A DNA stretch of 64,000 bases from Candidatus Zhuqueibacterota bacterium (GTDB taxonomy: Bacteria > Zhuqueibacterota > Zhuqueibacteria > Residuimicrobiales > Oceaniaggregativiventaceae), in NCBI GenBank assembly GCA_014728085.1, contig WJMF01000055.1, positions 21,045 through 85,044 of the forward strand, read 5' to 3'. Below the pieces are notes generated by a model, which saw only the letters and a list, made by a program, of their open reading frames with translations, did no database searches and was not told the DNA's origin. Positions 8,007-22,251 of this stretch are shown one piece after another; the first letter of the stretch is position 1, and each line of letters begins with the position of its first letter. The position numbers and the translations under genes were made by a program.

Positions 8007-10508
8007 CTATTTGATAAAAGTCATTTTTTTTGTCTCCTTAAAAGCTCCTGCCTCCAGGGTATACAGGTAGACACCGTTTGCCGCCATTTGCCGGCTTTGA
8101 TTCATGCCCGACCATCTTACAGCGTGCCGCCCGGCACTCATCTTTTGATCAATCAACGTGGTGACCAGCCGACCGTTGAGGTTATAAATTTTAAGGGTAA
8201 CCCGTTCAGCCCGGGGAATCGTAAAAGTTATTGTCGTTTGCGGATTAAAGGGATTGGGGAAATTGGGGTAGAGCTTGTATTCAGATGGCAGTTCCGTCTT
8301 TTCGGAAAATTGTACGGATGCGGGGATGATTCTGGCGAGACGGAGATCGTCGATATATATATTGCCGCTGAGGCTGTCTGATTGTTCTCCCCGCGTCAGC
8401 TGAAAACTATCCATGCGCAAGGTACCGTCAAGATTGCCATCACCAAGCCAGTCTCCGGTTCCATCGGTGGCCATGTTCCATGAAATCAATTTCCACCCCA
8501 GCCAATCAAGGGTATACCACGGGCTGACCTCATGATTCGTGGCGCCGGATACGGGAACTCTGTCATCAAGGGCAAAACGAAACTTGTGACCGCTGCCGTC
8601 ACCAAATATGTAGGCTTGCAGAACATCTTCACCGCTAAACTGTACATTTCGGGGAGCGCCACCGCCGAGGTATTCCCGAACAATCCATTCATCCGCATCC
8701 TTGTCCCATGAAAAATATAGATTCATAGATGTCCGGCTGTTCGTAACCAAATTGACGACAGTGGTAGCCGCTTCCCGTCCGGTTTTTTCGGTTACAAATC
8801 CGGTAGAGGTTCCGCTCTGCTGCGGCATCCACCAGTTGTTGATACCGGCTTCAAAATCATCGATTTCCTTGTAACTATATTCAGTTTCTCCGGTTGTAAA
8901 GCGAAATCCGCGTGTGGCCGTGGATATATTACCATGTATATCCTGCAAACCGGGCAACACCTGAACGAGATAAATGGTAGCCGGATCAAGCTGTTGGGAC
9001 GGAAAATAGCTCAGAACACCGAACCCCCCCACCGGATAATATACAACTTTTCCGGGGACCGGTTCACGATCGCGATAGGTGACATAATTGATCAGACTGT
9101 CTGCGACTGAAGATTCGAGCAGGGGTTCATCAAACACAAAAGAGACGATGGCACGTCGATCCACGCCTTCGGCATTTCGTTCAGGCAGATAAGATAAAAG
9201 AGAAGGGGGCTCCATGTCACGCGGACCGGTAGCGAAATTGAGAACAAAATCGTCGCCGCCAATGCCATCTCCGTTACCATCAAAAGCATGGCCGTAACGG
9301 TCCGTCACCGTACCGGGAATGGTAATGCTGTAAGCCGTGAGATACTGAAGCGTATCCGGCTTGATAACCAATTTTCTGTCATCCTCGATCCAGGTATAAT
9401 CGGCCGTAAAGTGTGGAGAATATCTCACAGAATCAACAAACAGTTGTTTGTCGAGCGGCCGACTGAATTCGATAACGAGTTTGTCCCATGCCGGCACCCG
9501 TTCAGCTCCCTCTTCAGGATCGGTGGAAACGACCATAGGGGCGCGTTGCGAGATGAGATCGACGTCGCGAAAGGTAAAAAAGTCATCTTTGATTTGTACC
9601 GAGAGGGTATCGCTGTAAAAGCTGTCCGCTTCAACAATCATTTGCAGCTCTGAATCCGGAAGCGCTTCGAAATAGTAAAATCCATTGTGCAACTCGTCCG
9701 GATCATTTGAATAGCGTTTGAAAACGGTTTCCCAGGTGTCCGTCACATAGGTTTTGCCGTTGAGATGAACGCGTGCTCCGTTGACCGGTACACCGGTATC
9801 TATATCGAGAATATAGCCGGCACAGGTGCCGAAAAAGGGTTTTTCCAGGTTATGAAATTCCAGAATCGACCAGTAAAATGTTTTTGCTTCCAATCGTTTC
9901 CACTCTGCATTCATAAATCGCTGCGCCTGTGCCGGATTGGTGTGAAATCCGGCTTCCGACAATTCCGAAGGCATGGTGCTGCGGCGGTTTACCGATAAAT
10001 AGGGTCCATTAAAAGTGCATCCATAGAATGAACAATCTCCGATTGAACCTCTAATGGTATAGGTCCGTAATCCGTCCGTGAGATATTTGATCATAATATC
10101 GCTCATCGCCTTGCCGCCGTTTGGTATCTTTTCCCGGCCATCGCGATATTGTCCCCATAGCAACAGCGTGCTGTTGGCGGAGGGCCCACCGGCATCACTG
10201 TGAATAGAGTGAAACCATGCAGCACCCAGTCTGTTGGCCATATCGGTCCGCTGTGTAAGGGTAACATATTGATTGTCATTGGTTCTGGAGAGGTAAACCG
10301 TATCAATATCCGTGGTGGAAAGGAGCAGATCGCGTAAATTCAAAGCGACGCGCACGTTGCGCTCAGCTTCCGAGACCCCAAAAACGCCCTGGTTTTCCTG
10401 GCGGCTGTGGCCCGGATCCAAAAAAATATTCCATCCCTGCAATCCGGTCACCTGGGCTTGCAAAGAAGCCGCCAGTGCGATGATAATCAAAAAAAGTATT
10501 CTTCTCAT
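8007..10508 (-). CDS. Secreted N-acetylmuramoyl-L-alanine amidase (Amidase_3) with Ig-like middle domains and a T9SS C-terminal sorting domain
   Basis: It has a signal peptide. The Amidase_3 motifs are present: LDPGHS, SRTND, ANRLGAAWFHSIHSDA, EAGFHTN. The C-terminus has a Por secretion-tail pattern (KLYPNFPNPFNPQTTITFTIP...VYLYTLEAG...K). Confidence 0.8.
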   Translation of the reverse strand: MRRILFLIIIALAASLQAQVTGLQGWNIFLDPGHSRQENQGVFGVSEAERNVRVALNLRDLLLSTTDIDTVYLSRTNDNQYVTLTQRTDMANRLGAAWFHSIHSDAGGPSANSTLLLWGQYRDGREKIPNGGKAMSDIMIKYLTDGLRTYTIRGSIGDCSFYGCTFNGPYLSVNRRSTMPSELSEAGFHTNPAQAQRFMNAEWKRLEAKTFYWSILEFHNLEKPFFGTCAGYILDIDTGVPVNGARVHLNGKTYVTDTWETVFKRYSNDPDELHNGFYYFEALPDSELQMIVEADSFYSDTLSVQIKDDFFTFRDVDLISQRAPMVVSTDPEEGAERVPAWDKLVIEFSRPLDKQLFVDSVRYSPHFTADYTWIEDDRKLVIKPDTLQYLTAYSITIPGTVTDRYGHAFDGNGDGIGGDDFVLNFATGPRDMEPPSLLSYLPERNAEGVDRRAIVSFVFDEPLLESSVADSLINYVTYRDREPVPGKVVYYPVGGFGVLSYFPSQQLDPATIYLVQVLPGLQDIHGNISTATRGFRFTTGETEYSYKEIDDFEAGINNWWMPQQSGTSTGFVTEKTGREAATTVVNLVTNSRTSMNLYFSWDKDADEWIVREYLGGGAPRNVQFSGEDVLQAYIFGDGSGHKFRFALDDRVPVSGATNHEVSPWYTLDWLGWKLISWNMATDGTGDWLGDGNLDGTLRMDSFQLTRGEQSDSLSGNIYIDDLRLARIIPASVQFSEKTELPSEYKLYPNFPNPFNPQTTITFTIPRAERVTLKIYNLNGRLVTTLIDQKMSAGRHAVRWSGMNQSRQMAANGVYLYTLEAGAFKETKKMTFIK

Positions 10509-12696: not shown

Positions 12697-13228
12697 AGCT
12701 GTTTTTTTTGATCGCGACGATACACTCATTAAAAACATTCCCTATCTGGGAGATCCGTCCAACGTCACTCTCCTTCCCGGCGCACCTGCGGCTGTGAGCC
12801 AATTAAAAAAAGCCGGATTCCTGCTCGTTATGATCACCAATCAATCCGGTGTCGGCAGAGGGCTCATCAGCCCTGAGCAGGTGAAAGCGGTTAACGATGA
12901 AGTGATGCGCAAAATTGGAATAGAGTTCGATGCTGTTTATATGTGCTTTGATCATCCCGATACCCCCAAAGAAAATTGCCGCAAGCCCTCCCCGAAAATG
13001 ATTCTGCAGGCACAAAAAGAGCTGCACATCGACCCGTCTGCATCATTTTTTATCGGTGATACCTACCATGACATAGTGGCCGGCAACAGGGCCGGCTGCA
13101 GGACCATATTGCTCGAACACGCACACAAAAAAACCGAAAGCCGTAAAGCCGAACCTCTGGCAAATCTAATCTCGGACGACCTGGCAAAAATTACCGACTG
13201 GATTCTGTCACAAAACAGAAAAACTTGA
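12680..13228 (+). CDS. gmhB: D-glycero-D-manno-heptose-1,7-bisphosphate phosphatase (GmhB, HAD family)
   Basis: The HAD motif I FFDRDDT is present, with downstream HAD motifs (ITNQSG, the FIGDTYHD region). The 17-bp overlap with the heptose kinase supports cotranscription. Confidence 0.8.
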   Translation: MKTMNKAVFFDRDDTLIKNIPYLGDPSNVTLLPGAPAAVSQLKKAGFLLVMITNQSGVGRGLISPEQVKAVNDEVMRKIGIEFDAVYMCFDHPDTPKENCRKPSPKMILQAQKELHIDPSASFFIGDTYHDIVAGNRAGCRTILLEHAHKKTESRKAEPLANLISDDLAKITDWILSQNRKT

Positions 13229-13354
13229 TTATTATTGAGAAAATGTGTATAGTAAGATTATAACCTTGACCATACAGGGAAATAAAAAACCCCATAAAGT
13301 TTTAAATGATTTCCTGACTCCAAGCGCGGATATTTATAAATGAGAGGATAGCCC

Positions 13355-13726
13355 ATGCAACGCAATTCAGTGTTTAAATGCCAGGTTTGTGGAAACATGG
13401 TGGAAATGGTTCATGTCGGCGGCGGCACGCTGGTGTGCTGCGGACAACCCATGACGCTTTTGAATGAAAACACAGAAGACGCCGCAACAGAAAAACATGT
13501 ACCTGTTATTGAACAAGATGGTGACAAAGTGACCGTCAGTGTCGGCAGTGTCCTTCATCCCATGGAGGAAAAACACTTTATTCAGTGGATCGAAGTGATT
13601 ACAACCGATAAGGTATACCGCCGTCATCTCAAACCGGAAGACAAACCGGTTGTACAATTCATCATTGAAGGAGAGGTCGTAAAAGCGCGGGAATATTGCA
13701 ATCTTCACGGCCTCTGGTCTGCATAA
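13355..13726 (+). CDS. dfx: Desulfoferrodoxin (2Fe superoxide reductase)
   Basis: The N-terminus is desulforedoxin-like (CQVCGN...CCGQPM). The neelaredoxin centre II motifs EKHVPVIE and a C-terminal Cys/His are present. Length is 123 aa. Confidence 0.9.
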   Translation: MQRNSVFKCQVCGNMVEMVHVGGGTLVCCGQPMTLLNENTEDAATEKHVPVIEQDGDKVTVSVGSVLHPMEEKHFIQWIEVITTDKVYRRHLKPEDKPVVQFIIEGEVVKAREYCNLHGLWSA

Positions 13727-13752
13727 TCGACATATGCCTGAACCGTCCAGCC

Positions 13753-13810
13753 GGCTCCGGGTATAGAGGGAGATAAATTACCGCTGTTCTCTCTGCCGGG
13801 GAGCCGTTTT
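13753..13810 (+). terminator. Possible long-loop terminator hairpin downstream of dfx
   Basis: GGCTCCGG...CCGGGGAGCC is an inverted repeat followed by GTTTTGCC. The loop is about 35 nt, so I hold this with low confidence. Confidence 0.35.
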
Positions 13811-13881
13811 GCCAGGTGAATGGCGCAAGCGTCTACAGGATAACCCGTGGCTGTCATGTTAACTAAAATCCAGAGGATAAA

Positions 13882-15222
13882 ATGCGAGCTTTGTTCATCT
13901 TATCATTGATCATCAGTGCAGCTTGTCTTTACGCTCAGGAACTGCCGTCCGGCAGTTCTCTTTTGGGGGCATATGCTTACGATCAGTTTGAAAAACCGGA
14001 AGCGTGCCAGAGCTGTCATGTTGATATCTACATGCAATGGCGACAGGCGATGATGTCGCAAGCTTACACACATCACTGGGATGAAATCGAATATTTCGAC
14101 CTGGCAGTGGCTCATGCCGAAAAGAAACCCGAGCTAAAGGAAGCTGTCGATGGCTGTAATGGTTGTCATACGCCCATGGCCTATATGGCCGGAGATGTCA
14201 CGCCACCGCGGCCGGAAGAAAACAGTCGTGCCAATGAGAGCGTTAATTGCGATGTCTGTCATACCATCAAGGGGTACACGGGTGAACCGCCTTATAATTA
14301 CAGCTTTATAGCATCACCCGGCCGGGTGAAATACGGCGCCAAGGAAGGGCAGGAATCTCCACATCACGACACCCAATACCTCGAATTGTATGAAAAGGCG
14401 GAATTTTGCGCCAACTGCCACAACGAAAAAAGTCCCTTCGGCGTCTGGGTAAAATCGACTCACCTGGAATGGGAAGAGGGGCCCTATTCGGAACAAGGGG
14501 TTCCCTGCCAGCAATGTCACATGCCGAAAGCAAAAGGCAGAAGTGCCAAAATGGCAAAAGAAGGCATGGTGGCCCAGCACCTCTTTCACGGTGCCCATGT
14601 ACCCAGTAAAGTAGCCGGGTCCATAGAGATGAAAATACATCCTCGCGAACGCGAGCTTCCCTGGGACGGGGCGGCAATCCTCAAAGTGCAGCTCTTTAAC
14701 GGCAAAGCCGGTCACAAAATCCCAACCGGCTCGGTCGAAGACCGCATCATGTGGTTGCATGTAACCGCAACCGATTCAAAAGGCAACACCTATCATCTGC
14801 CGGTGGACAAAAAGGGTTTTGAAGGTGAACAATACACCATAGCCGCAGATGTTCTCGCCTATCAGGATATGGGTGTACCCAAAGGTATTGATAATTTTAA
14901 GGGAGTACAGAGAGACGGTGTGCCTGTTGGGGACAGAATCTTTCGTATGCCCTATTTTGATCCTCAGGGCCGGATGACCATTATGCAATGGAACACCAAA
15001 ACCCTGGGCGTTGATTACAGAATCGGACCACGGGAAACCAAAATAGAAACCTTTACCTGGATGCTGCCGAAAGATATTCCTCTCGGCAAAGTCACGTTCA
15101 GGGCCGAATTAAACTACCAAAAGCTGGTCAAACCCGTCGCTGATTTTCTCGGTGTCCCTGAGGATGAAAGCGAGATCATGCCGATCAGCTATGCCACCAC
15201 CTGGATAACTGTATACAATTAA
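13882..15222 (+). CDS. Secreted pentaheme c-type cytochrome
   Basis: It has a signal peptide and five CxxCH motifs (CQSCH, CNGCH, CDVCH, CANCH, CQQCH), all within the first ~215 aa. The C-terminal ~230 aa are heme-free. An AGAGGA RBS precedes the start. Confidence 0.85.
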   Translation: MRALFILSLIISAACLYAQELPSGSSLLGAYAYDQFEKPEACQSCHVDIYMQWRQAMMSQAYTHHWDEIEYFDLAVAHAEKKPELKEAVDGCNGCHTPMAYMAGDVTPPRPEENSRANESVNCDVCHTIKGYTGEPPYNYSFIASPGRVKYGAKEGQESPHHDTQYLELYEKAEFCANCHNEKSPFGVWVKSTHLEWEEGPYSEQGVPCQQCHMPKAKGRSAKMAKEGMVAQHLFHGAHVPSKVAGSIEMKIHPRERELPWDGAAILKVQLFNGKAGHKIPTGSVEDRIMWLHVTATDSKGNTYHLPVDKKGFEGEQYTIAADVLAYQDMGVPKGIDNFKGVQRDGVPVGDRIFRMPYFDPQGRMTIMQWNTKTLGVDYRIGPRETKIETFTWMLPKDIPLGKVTFRAELNYQKLVKPVADFLGVPEDESEIMPISYATTWITVYN

Positions 15223-15238
15223 TCAATGAGGACATGAT

Positions 15239-16447
15239 ATGTATTTCAAAAAAAATATGATTTTTTTGATCTGCACCCTGTTTGTGTGGATCACTCTAGC
15301 CTCCACCGCATCGGCGATTCCCGCCTTTGCAAGGCGTTACAAACTTTCCTGCTCCACTTGTCATATGCCCTTTCCCAGGCTTAAAGACTTTGGCGATGAT
15401 TATGCCGGAAACGGTTTTATTCTCGAAGAGGAGGAAAGTGAAAGAGACTATGTCAGCGCCGGAGACGATATTCTCTGGTTGCAGCGCGATTTCCCGGTTG
15501 CCGTTCGTTTTGATGCCTATGCCCTATATGACGAGGACAAAGCGGTAGAAAACGACCTGCAAAGCCCCTGGGGATTGAAATTAATGAGCGGCGGGGCCGT
15601 CTTTAAAAATGTCGGCTATTATTTCTATTTTTACATGTCCGAGCGGGGTGAAGTCGCGGGAATCGAGGATGCTTATATCCACTTTAATAACCTTTTCGAC
15701 TCCAGTCTGGATATCATGGTCGGACAATTCCAGACGTCTGACCCCCTGATGAAACGGGAATTGCGTTTGACATTCGAAGACTATAACATTTACAAGACCA
15801 AAATCGCCGGCTCCAATACCGATCTCGCCTATGACCGCGGTGTGATGGTGGTCTATGGTATCGAGCAAACCTCAACCGATATTGTCGGTATGGTGGTAAA
15901 TGGCAATGGCAAAGCCGAAGCCGGTGCCGACAAGAGTTTTGACCAGGACAAGTACAAAAACATCGGCCTCAGGGTAAGCCAGGCCGTCGGCGATCTGTTC
16001 AGCATCGGAGGATTCTATTACCAGGGTAAAGAAACATTGCAGGGCAGCCGAATGATCGATGGCGAAACGGAAATCAACTTTAGCTATGACAATGAATTGA
16101 GCTATTGGGGCCCGGATATCAATATCGGGGTCGGCCCGATCGATATTACCGGCCAGTACTTGCTGAGAAAGGATACGCATAAATTCAGCGACCGCGCCGA
16201 TGAAGAGATCGAAACCTCGGGTATTGTGCTGGAAGCCATTTTTGCTCCCCATCTCGACCGTTCCCGTTATTATTTTACAGCGCTGTATAATAATATAGAT
16301 TCGGATTGGGATGTCTATGATTATGAAACGGCAACCCTGAGCGCCACCTATCTGTTTGCGAGAAACATCCGGTTTATACTCGAATACAGCCGTGACCTGC
16401 AATATGACAGCAATCGTTTTCTCTTTGGGATGGTTAGCGGATTCTAA
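15239..16447 (+). CDS. Cyc2-like fused monoheme cytochrome c / outer-membrane beta-barrel porin
   Basis: After the signal peptide (…TASA|IPAF) there is a single CSTCH heme motif about 12 residues past the cleavage site. The remaining ~350 aa show an alternating amphipathic beta-strand pattern. The C-terminal residue is Phe (…GMVSGF), the classic OMP signature. The gene starts 16 bp after the pentaheme cytochrome stop. Confidence 0.7.
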   Translation: MYFKKNMIFLICTLFVWITLASTASAIPAFARRYKLSCSTCHMPFPRLKDFGDDYAGNGFILEEEESERDYVSAGDDILWLQRDFPVAVRFDAYALYDEDKAVENDLQSPWGLKLMSGGAVFKNVGYYFYFYMSERGEVAGIEDAYIHFNNLFDSSLDIMVGQFQTSDPLMKRELRLTFEDYNIYKTKIAGSNTDLAYDRGVMVVYGIEQTSTDIVGMVVNGNGKAEAGADKSFDQDKYKNIGLRVSQAVGDLFSIGGFYYQGKETLQGSRMIDGETEINFSYDNELSYWGPDINIGVGPIDITGQYLLRKDTHKFSDRADEEIETSGIVLEAIFAPHLDRSRYYFTALYNNIDSDWDVYDYETATLSATYLFARNIRFILEYSRDLQYDSNRFLFGMVSGF

Positions 16448-16494
16448 AACAGACGATCCGGTTAAGGGTCGTTTAAATCGTAAACGGATCAGGT

Positions 16495-17058
16495 ATGAAA
16501 TCAGATGTGCGCTGTCCATATTCATCGCTATTGGAGCTGTTACACTATAGAAAGAGCAGTCGAAATTTTTCGACCAAAAGACTCGAGCCCGAGACCATAG
16601 AACGTATCAAAAAGGCGACTCAGCTCTCTGCCTCCTGTTTCAACAATCAGCCCTGGCGCTTTTTGTTTCTGTACGAGGAAAAAGCGCTGGAAAAAGGCCG
16701 CCAGGCTTTAAAAGAGGGCAACAGCTGGGCCGAAAAAGCACCGTTGCTGGTGGTTGGCTTTTCCAGAGCCGATTCCGATTGCCAGACCCGGGATGGGAGA
16801 GATTATTATCTCTTTGATCTCGGCCTGGCCAGCCAGCTTATTATGTTACAAGCAACCGAGCTTAACCTGAGCGCCCGCCCCATGGCGGGATTTTATCCCC
16901 AAAAGATCAAAACATTGTTCAACATAGATGACGAATACACCGTTATGGTAATGATCGCTATCGGCTATGATGCCGATGAAACATCAGATGGCGACAAACC
17001 CGAACGGAAACGTAATCCACTGCATGAAAATTTTTTTGACAACCGTTTTCAAGATTGA
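16495..17058 (+). CDS. Nitroreductase family protein (FMN-dependent NAD(P)H oxidoreductase)
   Basis: The YRKSSRNF motif (the R-R/K-S-x-R-x-F nitroreductase signature) is present. Size and remaining sequence are consistent with the family. Confidence 0.75.
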   Translation: MKSDVRCPYSSLLELLHYRKSSRNFSTKRLEPETIERIKKATQLSASCFNNQPWRFLFLYEEKALEKGRQALKEGNSWAEKAPLLVVGFSRADSDCQTRDGRDYYLFDLGLASQLIMLQATELNLSARPMAGFYPQKIKTLFNIDDEYTVMVMIAIGYDADETSDGDKPERKRNPLHENFFDNRFQD

Positions 17059-17738
17059 TGAAGAAAGGTGCTTCGATGAAGTTCAAATACATATTTTATC
17101 CGCTGCTTTTTATTGTTGCGCTTTTGGTAATCACGTTTTGCTCCGAACAAGCGGATCAAAACACAACTCTGAATTTATTGAAACCAGAGCCTCATGGTGC
17201 TTTCACTTTAAAAAACTGGTCACACCATGGTTCCGGTAAATTCTATCTGAATGACAGCTCAGGCGTGCTGAAATCACACGACGGCATGGGATTACTCTAC
17301 TATAGCGAACAAAAATTCAACGATTTTATCCTTGAACTCGATTATAAAACCGACCATATTAAAGCCAATTCAGGCGTTTTTGTACGGGTTCCCGAATTGG
17401 ACAGCACCAATAATTATATCCATAAAAGCTTTGAGATACAAATTTATGATGCAGGGGAAGGCAAAAATACTACCGGAGCGATTTACGATGCCCATGCTCC
17501 CGCCACGACTCCGTTTAAAACGCCCGGTGAATGGAATCATCTGAAAATCACCTGCATAGAGGATTCCATGGCCGTTGAATTGAACAACACCCTCGTCAAC
17601 ACATGGAAAATCTCGACTCCTGTGGGCAAAATCAAAACCTGGCAGCCATCCGGTTATGTCGGTTTGCAGAATCACGATGAGGATACACACGTTGATTTCC
17701 GAGACATTGAACTGACGATGCTTGAGCGGGAAAACTAG
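17055..17738 (+). CDS. DUF1080 (3-keto-disaccharide hydrolase-like, concanavalin-type jelly roll) lipoprotein
   Basis: The product has a lipobox (LVITFC|SEQ). It matches the DUF1080 pattern: GW-motif region, NSGVFVR, FEIQIYD, GYVGLQNH. Confidence 0.7.
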   Translation: MMKKGASMKFKYIFYPLLFIVALLVITFCSEQADQNTTLNLLKPEPHGAFTLKNWSHHGSGKFYLNDSSGVLKSHDGMGLLYYSEQKFNDFILELDYKTDHIKANSGVFVRVPELDSTNNYIHKSFEIQIYDAGEGKNTTGAIYDAHAPATTPFKTPGEWNHLKITCIEDSMAVELNNTLVNTWKISTPVGKIKTWQPSGYVGLQNHDEDTHVDFRDIELTMLEREN

Positions 17739-18059
17739 AACCGTTATCCGGTTTACTGGACATTGCGGCAAGCGTATGGTAAAACCTGTTCCTTTAAATC
17801 TGTTCAGAAGGAATAAGGCCCCCGACGATAATCTTGAAAATTGATTATTGCTTTTGCCGGGCTCTGTTTCGAACTCTCCTGTCTGTAACCCGGCCGTTAT
17901 GATGAATAACGGTGAATCACTCGCCTTCACTTTCTTTCATATATGCATCCTTCCAGAAATTCATAATCAGGTGGGCGTTTTGTTGTCCCCTTTTTCAGAC
18001 AGTGCGACAGAGATCCGGGTGACGCACACCATCCTGTTGAAATAAAAATAATTTTACTT

Positions 18060-18113
18060 GATGCTTAGCATTTAATATTGTACATTTATTTAGTTAGGGC
18101 ATCTTATTAACTA
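18060..18113. promoter_or_regulatory. Two palindromes upstream of the ROK regulator gene (candidate operator sites)
   Basis: ATGCTTAGCAT is a perfect 11-bp palindrome at 18060-18070. TTAGTTA-N10-TTAACTAA lies at 18089-18113. Both fall in the 170-bp region upstream of the ROK gene start. Confidence 0.3.
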
Positions 18114-18229
18114 ACAATGTGTTGGGGGAGACGGTCACGGGAATGGCCACTCGCAAACCTTCGGCCAGATTTATCAGCGTAACGATTTGATATTTCTTCA
18201 ACTCTAATAAACAGACGAAAGCACAGTCA

Positions 18230-19480
18230 ATGGAAAATTCAGCGAATCAGAAATTACTCAAACAGCTCAACGAAATCCGGCTTTTAAATATTATCAAACA
18301 AAAAGGTCCGATCAGCAGAAGCGAACTGGCAAAACAGACGCGAATATCCAAAGTCGCCATTTCTGATATCGTCAACCGATTGAATAATGAAGGATTTATT
18401 CTCGAAATCGGTAAAGGCCAGTCGACCAATCGCGGCGGTAAACGGCCTACCCTCCTCAAGCTTAATCCTGAAAACGGCTATGTTATCGGTATTGAAATCC
18501 AGCGCCGTCATGCCGTCGTGGTATTGGCAAACATCCAGTCCGAGATCAAGGAAATGAGGCGAATATTCTATCAACCCGGTACGCCCTATATGGAAATTAT
18601 ATCCCGTTTGTTCGAGGAAATAGACCGTTTGTTGACCGACCCGTATGCTTCCAAGCTTATAAGCATTGGGATCGGTATTCCCGGCTTTGTCGATTATAAA
18701 AAAGGATCGCTCATATTCGCCGATAGTATGGTGGGCTGGGAGGGATTGCCGTTTTCCTCCATTTTTTCGGAACGCTATAATGTTCCAACCCTGGTTGAGA
18801 ACGATGTCAATAATATTACTCTGGGTGAAAGCCTAAAAGGCGCGGGACGCAGCTACCCGAATATGGTATGTATCTGGATCGGTGAAGGGCTTGGTGCCGG
18901 TATTATTGTGGATGGACAACTCGTTCGCGGCGCTACGGGCAGTGCAGGAGAAATCGGATATCTCGAAATTGCAAATTTTTGTCTCAGACGCGAAAAAACC
19001 AAATCGCTGTATCACGATCATACCTACTTTGGTGAAATCCTTTCTGAAAAAAACCTGCTTGCCACCCTGCACGAAAAACTGGGCATCAAGGAGATTTATG
19101 ATAATGAGGAAGATGAAAAAAAAGCCCTCATACGTCTTGTTAAAAGAAGCGATCGCGGTGACCGCGACGTCTGCGCCATCCTGGAGGAATACGCTTACCT
19201 GCTTTCCATTATCTGCTCGGTGTTTATCAAAACCATAAATCCCAATTTGATTCTCCTCAGCGGCAAGGTGCTCGAAAATTCCGATTACCTCATCGATCAG
19301 ATTCGCAAACAAAATCACCAGTCCCTCAAAAATCTATCCTTACAGGGCGTGACCCTGCAGGTGGGTTCACTCGGTGAAAACGCCGGTATTCAGGGGGCGA
19401 TCGACCTGGCGCTTTTAACTCTTTTCGAATCCCCGGTCACCAGACGTACCAATCACTACAAGCGACATAAACCCTACTGA
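18230..19480 (+). CDS. ROK family transcriptional regulator (N-terminal wHTH plus ROK sugar-kinase-like domain)
   Basis: The N-terminal HTH (ISRSELAKQTRISKVAISDIVNRL) is followed by a ROK fold (GIGIPGFVD, ENDVNNITLGE, GAGIIVDGQL). The typical CxCGxxGC zinc motif is not obvious, so the protein is divergent. Confidence 0.8.
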   Translation: MENSANQKLLKQLNEIRLLNIIKQKGPISRSELAKQTRISKVAISDIVNRLNNEGFILEIGKGQSTNRGGKRPTLLKLNPENGYVIGIEIQRRHAVVVLANIQSEIKEMRRIFYQPGTPYMEIISRLFEEIDRLLTDPYASKLISIGIGIPGFVDYKKGSLIFADSMVGWEGLPFSSIFSERYNVPTLVENDVNNITLGESLKGAGRSYPNMVCIWIGEGLGAGIIVDGQLVRGATGSAGEIGYLEIANFCLRREKTKSLYHDHTYFGEILSEKNLLATLHEKLGIKEIYDNEEDEKKALIRLVKRSDRGDRDVCAILEEYAYLLSIICSVFIKTINPNLILLSGKVLENSDYLIDQIRKQNHQSLKNLSLQGVTLQVGSLGENAGIQGAIDLALLTLFESPVTRRTNHYKRHKPY

Positions 19481-19998: not shown

Positions 19999-22251
19999 TC
20001 ACTTTGCAACAAAAACGCCGACCTCTCCTTGCTTCATGTCCAGTTCCAGCGTGCGCCCCTGCTTCTGGCCGTTGACCTGAAGCATATTTTTATGCATATC
20101 CAACTGCCGCTTGCCATCAGAGGTTGCCACAAGCATAACGGCATCTTCACTGGCCCGGACAATGTCGCCCTCCGTGCTCCATAATTTGACGCCGGCTTGC
20201 CGGCACAACCAGCGCAGTACCGGCACAGGAAGCGGCGCAGTACCGACGTAAACAGAGGTATAACCGTCGAGTTGCTTGCGGACGAACGCCGGCAATGCAT
20301 TGTCAGCCCAGCGACCGAGTATTTCAACATCTTTATCCGTTACGGCAAAACGGGGAAACCGTTCTCTCGTCAGGGTCCCGAACCTCAACTCTGTATTGTC
20401 TCCTCTCCCGGGCAACTCGCATTGAATCAGCATGGGACCCGGCTCTTCAAGAATGTCAAACTGAAATCCGCTCAATCTCTGCATCGCCTTTGGATCGAGT
20501 CTCTCCGGAGAGACAAAACCGGGAGCGTAATACCAAACCACGGTTATGCCGCTATCTTTCAGCAGGTTTTGCAGCCTGTCAATTTCCGATGCATCCAGAT
20601 AGAAAAGATTAACCATAAAAAGTAATTTATATTTTTCCATATCGCCGGCATTCAGATCGAACCGGTATAGGAAATCCATTGGGGCTCCCATTCGATGAAA
20701 TGCCCGCGCCTGGGAATCACAGAACCAGTATTCAAAAAAATCCTGATACCCGGCTCCCTTTTCCCAGGGCTTTTCAGCATACCAGTGTTTGGTTACAAAA
20801 AAACTTTTGGCATCATAAACCGCAGCAACATCTGAAACGCTTGACACATCCAACCGGGCGCGTATTTCGCCCAGTTCCGTCCACTTTTTGATCTCGTTCA
20901 CAATTACCGGTGGCGCATACCATCCCTCTCCCTTAACCGCACCAATATCGCAAAGCCAACCGCCGCTACCGGTTACAAACATTTGACCCAGATCCCGCTG
21001 CAACAACATTAAAGAACCTTTTACCGTATTGCTGCCGCTACCGGCATAGTCGATATCTCGCCCTTTATCGACATATGTAGCCGGATCGAGTTCAACAAAG
21101 GGCAATTTACCGTGTCGTTTAATCGAGGTTAGTAAAAGACGATAACCGCCGTCACCGGCCAGGCCACGTCCCCTGCCCAACCAGTTTCCGGCCTGATCAT
21201 AAACATCTGTTTCACCCCTGGTCGCATCCTCCTGGTTGGAAGATTGATAGGTGTAAGGTGAAGCGATAAAATCAATATGAGGAGACTGCAGTATCGGCTT
21301 TGGCGCAAGATGTCCCCCTTCCTGAATAAAGACATTCTCAAGCAGATAATTATAAAACACGCCACAAAGCAAACGATTCCGGCTGGTGTTTTTCACGATC
21401 CCGGCATAATGACAGATCAGATCGGCGGTTAAATGATGCAGCCGTTTATAATAGTCGATAACCCGCGGCTGTTTTGATGGATCCCGAAACAATCCATAAT
21501 CACTCTGCACTCTGCTCTGCAGGTCTGGTATGTATCCCATATAGTCCTGCATTACCGGTGAAGTGTCCGGCAGAAACCAGGAATGAAAATAATGCCACTC
21601 TCCTCCCGTCGTACCGGAGCCGATATGATAGCCGATAATACGGCTTTTCAGGGGGGAGCGTTCATAGTAATCGATGAAATGCTTCAACATCCCGGTCATT
21701 TCATTTTTCCAGAATGATGACGCAAATGAGACCGATTGCGGATCATTTCTCCACCATCGCTGGCCACCCTCACCGATCAACAAGCTGTCGGTGGCGATAT
21801 TTACCACTTCGTTAAAAGGCAAGAGAGAGGTAACCAGCTCTTCCGGATGTTTTTCTTTCCACCAGTCCGGAGCATAAAGCAAGAGTCGCGGTAAAAAACA
21901 GGCTTCCGGGTGAAGTTTTAACAGCGAATCGAAAAATTTATCGAATTGTGTCCAGTCATAGCGATCCTCGGATAGCCAGCCGTCACTGATGTGAAGTATC
22001 GGATAAATAATCTCTATACCCGCCTGGCGAAACTGTGGTGTATAGTCCAGCAATCTAAAGCTCCAGGCAAAGAGGGGATAGGTTTCCTCTTCATTGATAA
22101 ACAGCCGGGGACCGCCGCGTTCTACTCGCACTGATGCCTGTACCGCAGGCTCGTCCTTTAATTTGGCGATCTCGCTCAACACACGGTTTTCATTTGCATA
22201 GGTTAGCGATGCAAGCATCAACGCCAGAATAGAAAAATATCGAAACATCAT
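19999..22251 (-). CDS. Secreted putative glycoside hydrolase (TIM-barrel, GH42/beta-galactosidase-like architecture; family not assigned)
   Basis: The 750-aa product has a signal peptide. The aromatic-rich sequence has a GH-like N-terminal region and a trimerisation-like middle domain. Assignment is from overall architecture and context only. Confidence 0.4.
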   Translation of the reverse strand: MMFRYFSILALMLASLTYANENRVLSEIAKLKDEPAVQASVRVERGGPRLFINEEETYPLFAWSFRLLDYTPQFRQAGIEIIYPILHISDGWLSEDRYDWTQFDKFFDSLLKLHPEACFLPRLLLYAPDWWKEKHPEELVTSLLPFNEVVNIATDSLLIGEGGQRWWRNDPQSVSFASSFWKNEMTGMLKHFIDYYERSPLKSRIIGYHIGSGTTGGEWHYFHSWFLPDTSPVMQDYMGYIPDLQSRVQSDYGLFRDPSKQPRVIDYYKRLHHLTADLICHYAGIVKNTSRNRLLCGVFYNYLLENVFIQEGGHLAPKPILQSPHIDFIASPYTYQSSNQEDATRGETDVYDQAGNWLGRGRGLAGDGGYRLLLTSIKRHGKLPFVELDPATYVDKGRDIDYAGSGSNTVKGSLMLLQRDLGQMFVTGSGGWLCDIGAVKGEGWYAPPVIVNEIKKWTELGEIRARLDVSSVSDVAAVYDAKSFFVTKHWYAEKPWEKGAGYQDFFEYWFCDSQARAFHRMGAPMDFLYRFDLNAGDMEKYKLLFMVNLFYLDASEIDRLQNLLKDSGITVVWYYAPGFVSPERLDPKAMQRLSGFQFDILEEPGPMLIQCELPGRGDNTELRFGTLTRERFPRFAVTDKDVEILGRWADNALPAFVRKQLDGYTSVYVGTAPLPVPVLRWLCRQAGVKLWSTEGDIVRASEDAVMLVATSDGKRQLDMHKNMLQVNGQKQGRTLELDMKQGEVGVFVAK

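Follow-up and report, generated by a model that had tools for sequence, protein, structure and literature searches.

A conserved two-gene unit of a pentaheme cytochrome and a Cyc2-family cytochrome-porin in Zhuqueibacterota and related bacteria, a candidate outer-membrane redox module

Cyc2, a fused monoheme cytochrome-porin of the outer membrane, serves as a metagenomic marker gene for microbial iron oxidation, and the assayed representatives of all three Cyc2 clusters oxidise Fe(II) (PMC8406198, PMC7005843). The family is recognised by a signal peptide, one CXXCH motif with AXPXFAR[Q/K][T/Y] upstream and PXL downstream, a minimum length of 365 aa, and a 16-strand porin resembling OprO/OprP (Keffer et al. 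2021). Most Cyc2 homologues sit in organisms that have never been shown to oxidise iron. In the rus operon of Acidithiobacillus ferrooxidans (cyc2-cyc1-cox-rus), the outer-membrane Cyc2 is encoded together with a periplasmic c-type cytochrome relaying electrons. The extHIJKL cluster of Geobacter likewise groups a cytochrome gene (that of ExtKL) with the gene of an outer-membrane barrel (ExtI). Here, two adjacent open reading frames (ORFs) from a Candidatus Zhuqueibacterota bacterium are described, ORF1 for a pentaheme cytochrome and ORF2 for a Cyc2-family protein. They lie in a 64-kb stretch of contig WJMF01000055.1 (assembly GCA_014728085.1), which is referred to as the window.

Both genes were taken from a six-frame ORF list and are separated by a gap of 16 bp (15223-15238). 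Each is preceded by a GAGGA sequence resembling a ribosome-binding site (RBS), so that the arrangement given in the original prediction, which was made from the letters of the window, was borne out (Table 1). They are the only c-type cytochrome genes in the window, and ORF1 matches GF407_04235, from a metagenome-assembled genome (MAG) of candidate division KSB1, at 100% identity.

The ORF2 protein begins with MYFKKNMIFLICTLFVWITLASTASA, which has a K-rich n-region, a hydrophobic core and a terminal ASA motif, and continues after the cleavage site with IPAFARRYKLSCSTCH, starting at I. This signal peptide was called from the sequence and from a conservation break at residue 26, and it is the sole poorly conserved segment of the protein (24% mean pairwise identity). 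The only CxxCH motif is CSTCH at residues 38-42, in which C38 lies 12 residues past A-S-A and beyond the hydrophobic core, that is, outside the signal peptide and at the distance originally predicted. The surrounding signature reads A-I-P-A-F-A-R-R-Y-KLS-CSTCH-MPF-P-R-L, and the residues P28, R32, C38, C41, H42, P46, and L48 were invariant in all 48 homologues aligned. AIPAFARRY fits AXPXFAR[Q/K][T/Y] at eight of nine positions, with R at the [Q/K] site, and the clade members P0020 and P0094 carry FARKY, which matches the strict pattern. The strict regular expression of the published Cyc2 screen would drop most of this clade. The heme peptide of Cyc2 PV-1 verified by mass spectrometry, QTGAACLSCHFQTFPALNAFGR, aligns with RYKLSCSTCHMP-FPRLKDFGD of ORF2, where the CSTCH-MPF-PRL spacing is one residue less than that of Cyc2 PV-1. 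The spacing from H to PxL equals that of Leptospirillum Cyt572 (cluster 3) according to the machine-read and visibly corrupted text of Fig. S9 of PMC9769843, which was used for the listing of bins and for approximate motifs only.

An AlphaFold2 (AF2) model of ORF2 showed a predicted local distance difference test score (pLDDT) of 71.7 and a predicted template modelling score (pTM) of 0.70, and DSSP counted 16 strands between residues 88 and 401. Foldseek against the PDB matched the model to 16-strand porins, including OmpT/OmpU, OprO (4rjx, E 2e-10), and OprP (2o4v, E 1e-9), with E values from 1e-9 to 5e-12. The protein ends in ...VSGF, and the beta-barrel with a C-terminal Phe expected for an outer-membrane protein was thus seen in the model. 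Neither Pfam nor NCBIfam holds a model for ORF2; the lone match was to the OmpL-like porin family BBP2 below the threshold (18 bits, cut-off 26). A sequence search of the PDB with the ORF2 profile returned chance matches to CTP synthase only, and therefore no solved Cyc2 is available for comparison.

Conservation of ORF2 is high throughout, with a mean column identity of 64% (48 homologues) and a mean pairwise identity of 68% for the mature protein within the clade. The cytochrome domain is its most conserved part (79%), and within the barrel, conservation peaks in the loop that joins strands 5 and 6 (QFQTSDPLMKRELRLTFEDY), with 78% mean pairwise identity versus 59% for residues 199-402. The stretch Q163-L175 in this region is among the invariant residues, and the motif is retained in distant Cyc2-like proteins. 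General porins have their constriction loop L3 at this position, and the ORF2 loop may act as a pore constriction or as a source of a heme ligand. Since the cytochrome domain contains no invariant His or Met besides H42, the sixth ligand of the heme may come from the invariant M171 or H148 of the barrel.

The homologue search with ORF2 found about 2,930 homologues, and a profile search of 1.84 billion representatives gave 2,440 relatives at E<=1e-3. The strict motif (e.g. PVFARQY, PAFARKY) is present, together with a C-terminal Phe, in full-length relatives at greater distance, and the members of their clusters are annotated as 'hypothetical protein' only. When the ORF2 clade was aligned by hhalign with eight distant strict-motif Cyc2-like proteins, a probability of 100% and an E value of 4.9e-84 were obtained over 390 columns, in an alignment covering the whole protein, which is well above noise. 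A further search with the profile of such distant proteins (P0338 family) revealed a second, separately conserved Cyc2-like family with the PVFARQY motif and about 60-65% identity, widespread in proteobacterial MAGs including Gallionellaceae, Acidiferrobacterales, Thiobacillaceae, and Chromatiales, and also present in Nitrospinota and Persephonella. All members found in this search were annotated as hypothetical, and none was named Cyc2. Because no relative bearing the name was found, the tie to named Cyc2 is drawn from the published motif, the PV-1 peptide, and FeGenie calls. The latter come from a FeGenie screen of Southwest Indian Ridge chimneys, which reported Cyc2-like sequences in the KSB1 bins Dive96_bin1.135 and Dive96_bin3.88 (PMC9769843); these bins are the source MAGs of two of the loci analysed below (L036 and L031, respectively). 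The same study found Cyc2-like genes in Calditrichota, Eisenbacteria, Krumholzibacteriota, and Gemmatimonadota, and assigned the majority of these sequences to cluster III, close to Leptospirillum Cyt572 and Tenderia (PMC9769843).

Taken together, ORF2 belongs to the Cyc2 fused monoheme cytochrome-porin family, as the original prediction had proposed from its architecture. It has the signal peptide, the single CXXCH, the PXL, the length (402 aa), and the 16-strand OprO/OprP-like barrel. The Cyc2 proteins of A. ferrooxidans and Mariprofundus ferrooxydans PV-1 and Leptospirillum Cyt572 share with it the signal peptide, a single N-terminal CxxCH, AxPxFAR-x-Y, PxL, a length of about 400 aa, and the same type of barrel. 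Whereas recognised Cyc2 proteins share only 17-30% identity between clusters, the ORF2 clade is 55-69% identical across phyla.

The ORF1 protein contains the heme motifs CQSCH (residues 42-46), CNGCH (92-96), CDVCH (123-127), CANCH (176-180), and CQQCH (209-213), all within its first 213 residues and in line with the secreted five-heme protein described from the letters. In an alignment of 40 homologues (mean column identity 76%), the ten heme Cys and the five motif His were invariant; no other Cys was conserved, and the mature protein of the window has no further Cys. Seven additional His were invariant in the same alignment, and the invariant His would suffice for bis-His ligation of all five hemes. 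Pfam matches were to Cytochrome_C554, C7, and NNT. A lipoprotein was considered and rejected, as the Cys of the signal peptide is not conserved and no lipobox is present; ORF1 is therefore regarded as a soluble secreted protein. From its sequence, ORF1 is a periplasmic pentaheme c-type cytochrome predicted to be exported by the Sec pathway and cleaved by signal peptidase I, with the heme domain followed by an immunoglobulin (Ig)-like domain.

Among proteins of solved structure, the low-potential penta-heme cytochrome c552 of Thermochromatium tepidum (5ZE8) comes closest to ORF1; it was found by hmmsearch with an E value of 9.5e-12 over residues 40-136 and 172-305. It has the same order of five hemes and an Ig-like domain, but the identity is only about 19%. 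The Ig-like domain of ORF1 carries an invariant GHK-P-GSVEDRI motif and aligns with that of 5ZE8, and a (G)H-x-x-PTG motif is common to both domains. 5ZE8 was also the top Foldseek match of the ORF1 model (E 1.3e-10). This model was poor (pLDDT 54.6), so that only 5ZE8 was used among its Foldseek matches and the relation rests mainly on the sequence search. A second, more distant relative is MccSep/ExtKL of Geobacter sulfurreducens, a periplasmic pentaheme polysulfide reductase and selenoprotein that requires a heme-ligating Cys (C239) and a selenocysteine/Cys residue (U325) (bioRxiv 10.1101/2025.11.18.688581). Like ORF1, MccSep is periplasmic, combines five hemes with an Ig-like domain, and is encoded in a cluster with an outer-membrane barrel. 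The NCBIfam model NF040886 (ExtKL) matched ORF1 with 58.5 bits (E 4e-16; cut-off 250), and the match covered residues 120-303 only. Unlike MccSep, ORF1 has neither the heme-ligating Cys nor the selenocysteine/Cys, and a function as a polysulfide reductase of the MccSep type was rejected on this ground.

Conservation of the pair was surveyed outward from the relatives of ORF2, which were present in 211 genomes at one genome per species; the best 80 of these, all MAGs, were analysed as loci. They come from KSB1/Zhuqueibacterota, Calditrichota, Latescibacterota, Krumholzibacteriota, Eisenbacteria, Neomarinimicrobiota, Gemmatimonadota, and similar groups. In 79 of these 80, the gene immediately upstream of the ORF2 relative is a same-strand homologue of ORF1 (62-95% identity); the one exception is truncated by the end of its contig. 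Clustering of all flanking ORFs revealed no further gene common to more than 15 of 81 loci, indicating that the unit consists of exactly two genes. Both proteins are, judging from their alignments, under strong constraint. Six distant Cyc2-like genes had readable flanks. In five of them (P0305, P0322, P0347, P0362, and P0368) the upstream gene had no Pfam match to a multiheme cytochrome, although no tblastn search with ORF1 was made there; in the sixth (P0331), the upstream gene was unannotated and was left out of the negatives. As the clade loci are paired and these five distant genes show no such partner by Pfam, the ORF1-ORF2 pairing appears to characterise this Cyc2-like clade.

The pair resembles the rus operon in that a Cyc2 is co-encoded with a dedicated periplasmic c-type cytochrome. 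The partner in the rus operon is the diheme c4 Cyc1, whereas that in the window is a pentaheme protein of the LPC type, probably of low potential; furthermore, the gene order is reversed and no oxidase or cupredoxin genes are attached. MtrCAB, MtoAB/PioAB, and Geobacter Pcc also have an outer-membrane barrel and a periplasmic multiheme cytochrome encoded side by side. Their barrels comprise 20-26 strands enclosing a separate multiheme protein, whereas the ORF2 barrel has 16 strands and its own single heme and is too narrow to hold the pentaheme protein. No match to the MtrB/PioB or Pcc porin families was found in the Pfam and NCBIfam scans. In Geobacter, the barrel ExtI is heme-free, and the rhodanese gene of that cluster has no counterpart at the window locus.

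In the window, the unit is flanked by genes for a desulfoferrodoxin (TIGR00320, 187 bits, cut-off 147; PF01880 and PF06397 also matched) and a nitroreductase-family protein, both of which had been named from the letters; a 3-keto-disaccharide hydrolase gene is also among the flanking genes. Each of the first two genes may be co-transcribed with the unit. The interval between the desulfoferrodoxin gene and ORF1 contains a long imperfect stem-loop at 13751-13810 (GGCUCCGGG...CCGGGGAGCC, then GUUUUG). Its stability did not exceed that of shuffled sequence (z -0.9). A sigma-70 promoter/terminator scan, which is uninformative for this phylum, found no terminator-like site between ORF2 and the nitroreductase gene, and an Rfam scan of 13000-18300 gave no match.

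Among the related loci, desulfoferrodoxin and nitroreductase homologues occur in the flanks of 13 and 10 of the 80, respectively, and peroxiredoxins, superoxide dismutases (SOD), flavodiiron proteins, and ferritins were also found (Table 1). At least one gene for handling reactive oxygen species (ROS) or for iron storage was present in 22 of 77 loci, and at least two were present in 11. The arrangements with SOD downstream and flavodiiron protein upstream fall in separate lineages. The enrichment of oxygen-, ROS-, and iron-handling genes beside the module is real but partial. Scans for Fur and PerR boxes upstream of ORF1 in 68 loci showed no convincing enrichment (10 sites with up to 3 PerR mismatches versus about 5 in shuffled sequences).

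Table 1. Positions of the two genes, their parts, and neighbouring genes in the window and, in the last four rows, in related loci (L numbers denote loci).
Feature	Position	Strand	Remarks
ORF1, pentaheme cytochrome gene	13882-15222	+	446 aa; six-frame ORF list
GAGGA RBS-like sequence of ORF1	13873-13877	+	4 nt ahead of ATG; read from sequence
Span of the five CxxCH motifs of ORF1	14005-14520	+	14005-14019, 14155-14169, 14248-14262, 14407-14421, 14506-14520; from translation
C-terminal Ig-like beta-sandwich of ORF1	14617-15219	+	residues ~246-446; AF2 strands with high pLDDT
ORF2, Cyc2-family cytochrome-porin gene	15239-16447	+	402 aa; six-frame ORF list
GAGGA RBS-like sequence of ORF2	15228-15232	+	6 nt ahead of ATG, inside the 16-bp gap
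Signal peptide of ORF2	15239-15316	+	residues 1-26; cleavage between ASA and I
Cyc2 signature AIPAFARRYKLSCSTCHMPFPRL of ORF2	15314-15382	+	residues 26-48; CSTCH at 15350-15364
16-strand beta-barrel of ORF2	15500-16444	+	residues 88-402, terminal Phe; DSSP on AF2 model
Strand 5-6 loop of ORF2 barrel	15731-15832	+	residues 165-198, QTSDPLMKRELRLTFEDY...
Desulfoferrodoxin (superoxide reductase) gene	13355-13726	+	155 bp upstream of ORF1; context
Nitroreductase-family gene	16495-17058	+	47 bp downstream of ORF2; PF00881, 77 bits; context
AhpC/TSA peroxiredoxins	e.g. L050 10364-10873		11 loci; flanks of related loci
Fe/Mn SOD with Tat-type signal	e.g. L034 9318-10052		8 loci, directly downstream in 6 of 8
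Flavodiiron protein	e.g. L002 5306-6490		6 loci, directly upstream
Ferritin	e.g. L018 4939-5451		6 loci; flanks of related loci

Other genes also accompany the module in this set. Twelve loci carry genes of system II cytochrome c biogenesis, which in several lineages adjoin the module and sometimes immediately precede ORF1 (e.g. L039 1388-2158, L044 5823-6593, L012 9335-12445); the CcsA-type Cytochrom_C_asm cluster was called by Pfam, and the large ResB-like ORFs by eye. In seven loci (L005, L007, L014, L017, L020, L025, and L035), an ORF within a few kb of the module combines a CxxCH motif with a sorting domain of the type IX secretion system (T9SS). The example at L014 9338-10141 encodes about 270 aa with a signal peptide, one N-terminal CxxCH (CTCH), and the domains Por_Secre_tail and FlgD_ig, possibly a monoheme protein that is secreted or displayed on the cell surface. 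In three loci (L005 5414-6244, L014 5405-6172, L047 1215-1973), the gene directly preceding the ORF1 homologue encodes a putative multi-pass metal permease, judged by eye from its sequence to be of the ZIP/ZupT type. Elsewhere in the window, the minus strand at 8007-10508 encodes an 833-aa N-acetylmuramoyl-L-alanine amidase with Big_5 Ig-like domains and a C-terminal T9SS sorting domain, which is consistent with an organism of the Fibrobacterota-Chlorobiota-Bacteroidota (FCB) type; a secreted cell-wall amidase is an unusual T9SS cargo. A secreted 750-aa protein with no Pfam match at E<=1e-5 is encoded at 19999-22251 (minus strand), adjoining the gene for a ROK-family regulator/kinase (18230-19480).

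Considering these results, the two genes probably encode a redox module, complete in itself and reaching across the outer membrane, which exchanges electrons through the Cyc2 heme and the pentaheme carrier; we assign this reading a probability of about 0.6, and Fe(II) oxidation is its tentatively favoured direction. In the proposed mechanism, the N-terminal domain of ORF2, of 60 residues, would hold one c-type heme where the 16-strand pore opens to the periplasm, and a small soluble redox species entering the pore could swap one electron with this heme. This species would most likely be Fe2+/Fe3+ by analogy, because every characterised Cyc2 acts on Fe(II). ORF1, presumably in physical contact with ORF2, would couple the heme to the periplasmic electron pool, for which the joint use of Cyc2 and a periplasmic cytochrome in the rus operon of A. 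ferrooxidans offers a precedent. In mostly anaerobic heterotrophs, Fe(II) oxidation would serve protection or oxygen scavenging during transient O2 exposure rather than lithotrophic growth. Several observations weigh against this reading. The hosts, uncultured FCB-type heterotrophs in contrast to those of recognised Cyc2, are not known as iron oxidisers, and the clade is known here from sequences and models alone. The cytochrome segment of the ORF2 model has a pLDDT below 50, as expected without heme, and the R of the window protein, a conservative substitution, stands where the strict motif demands Q/K. ROS genes occur in only about 29% of loci and are phylogenetically clustered, and no inner-membrane partner is encoded near the module. 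Finally, the nearest protein of solved structure to ORF1 has a low potential and the distant relative MccSep is a reductase, and because of these relatives, outward flow or catalysis would fit ORF1 better than the uptake of electrons from Fe(II).

Electrons might accordingly flow outward, with the respiratory chain reducing the low-potential pentaheme protein and the Cyc2-type heme delivering them to an acceptor dissolved outside the cell, for instance chelated Fe(III), humic quinones, or oxygen species. The module would then serve anaerobes as a sink for electrons or as an oxygen/ROS reductase of the outer membrane. The relatedness of ORF1 to c552 and MccSep points in this direction, and so does its resemblance to bis-His multiheme periplasmic carriers, which are typical of outward electron transfer; anaerobic or facultative heterotrophic hosts and ROS defence genes in the neighbourhood would also suit it. 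Nevertheless, every Cyc2 assayed to date is an Fe(II) oxidase, the potential of Cyc2 PV-1 is +208 mV (Keffer et al. 2021), and solid Fe(III) would be beyond the reach of a single heme behind a narrow pore, and we consider outward flow possible but somewhat unlikely. It is much less probable that ORF1 is an MccSep-like multiheme reductase of a small inorganic substrate served by ORF2 as a dedicated entry porin, whose heme would be accessory or sensing, in parallel to MccSep and ExtI in extHIJKL. Such an enzyme would be consistent with the pentaheme plus Ig-like architecture, with the match to NF040886, with the clustering of the Geobacter gene with a barrel, and with the strictly invariant GHK-P-GSVEDR loop, whose position matches the domain that supplies the catalytic selenocysteine in MccSep. 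However, the Cys of ORF1 are confined to the heme motifs, leaving none for the catalytic and heme-ligating positions, and the NF040886 score is far under the cut-off (58 versus 250). The heme motif of ORF2 is also invariant, which argues that this heme is central rather than accessory. An ordinary diffusion porin with an incidental CxxCH and a cytochrome neighbour by chance or as a syntenic relic, as the sub-threshold BBP2 match and the likeness of the barrel to general porins might suggest, is hardly credible, given that C38, C41, H42, and the surrounding signature do not vary in any of the 48 homologues, that conservation is highest in the cytochrome domain, and that the adjacency persists across several phyla while other neighbours vary. 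Fe(II) oxidation linked to oxygen/iron stress is therefore favoured over outward reduction and over an enzyme served by a porin. A more specific version, in which the module is the outer-membrane arm of an oxygen/iron stress defence in anaerobic FCB-superphylum bacteria and not a respiratory iron oxidase, is speculative and on present evidence rather doubtful. Upon O2 intrusion, the Cyc2-type heme would oxidise incoming Fe2+ at the pore and prevent periplasmic Fenton chemistry; alternatively, it would reduce oxygen species directly, with the pentaheme cytochrome buffering or supplying electrons.

Cyc2-like genes in MAGs of KSB1, Calditrichota, Krumholzibacteriota, and Eisenbacteria are already published (PMC9769843). 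What looks new is confined to the pairing, which the original prediction had taken as uncharacterised in an FCB-like organism, and to its genomic context. The literature searched, incomplete in coverage, yielded no account of the conserved pentaheme partner, of how conserved the clade is, or of the ROS genes around it.

In summary, this clade offers a compact and strictly conserved two-gene unit of a heme porin and its presumptive periplasmic partner. If the module is reductive or acts in oxygen/iron stress defence, FeGenie-style 'iron oxidiser' calls would need revising for KSB1, Calditrichota, Latescibacterota, and related sediment phyla. A function in defence, if true, would assign a defined protective role to the many 'orphan' Cyc2 homologues found in organisms that do not oxidise iron.

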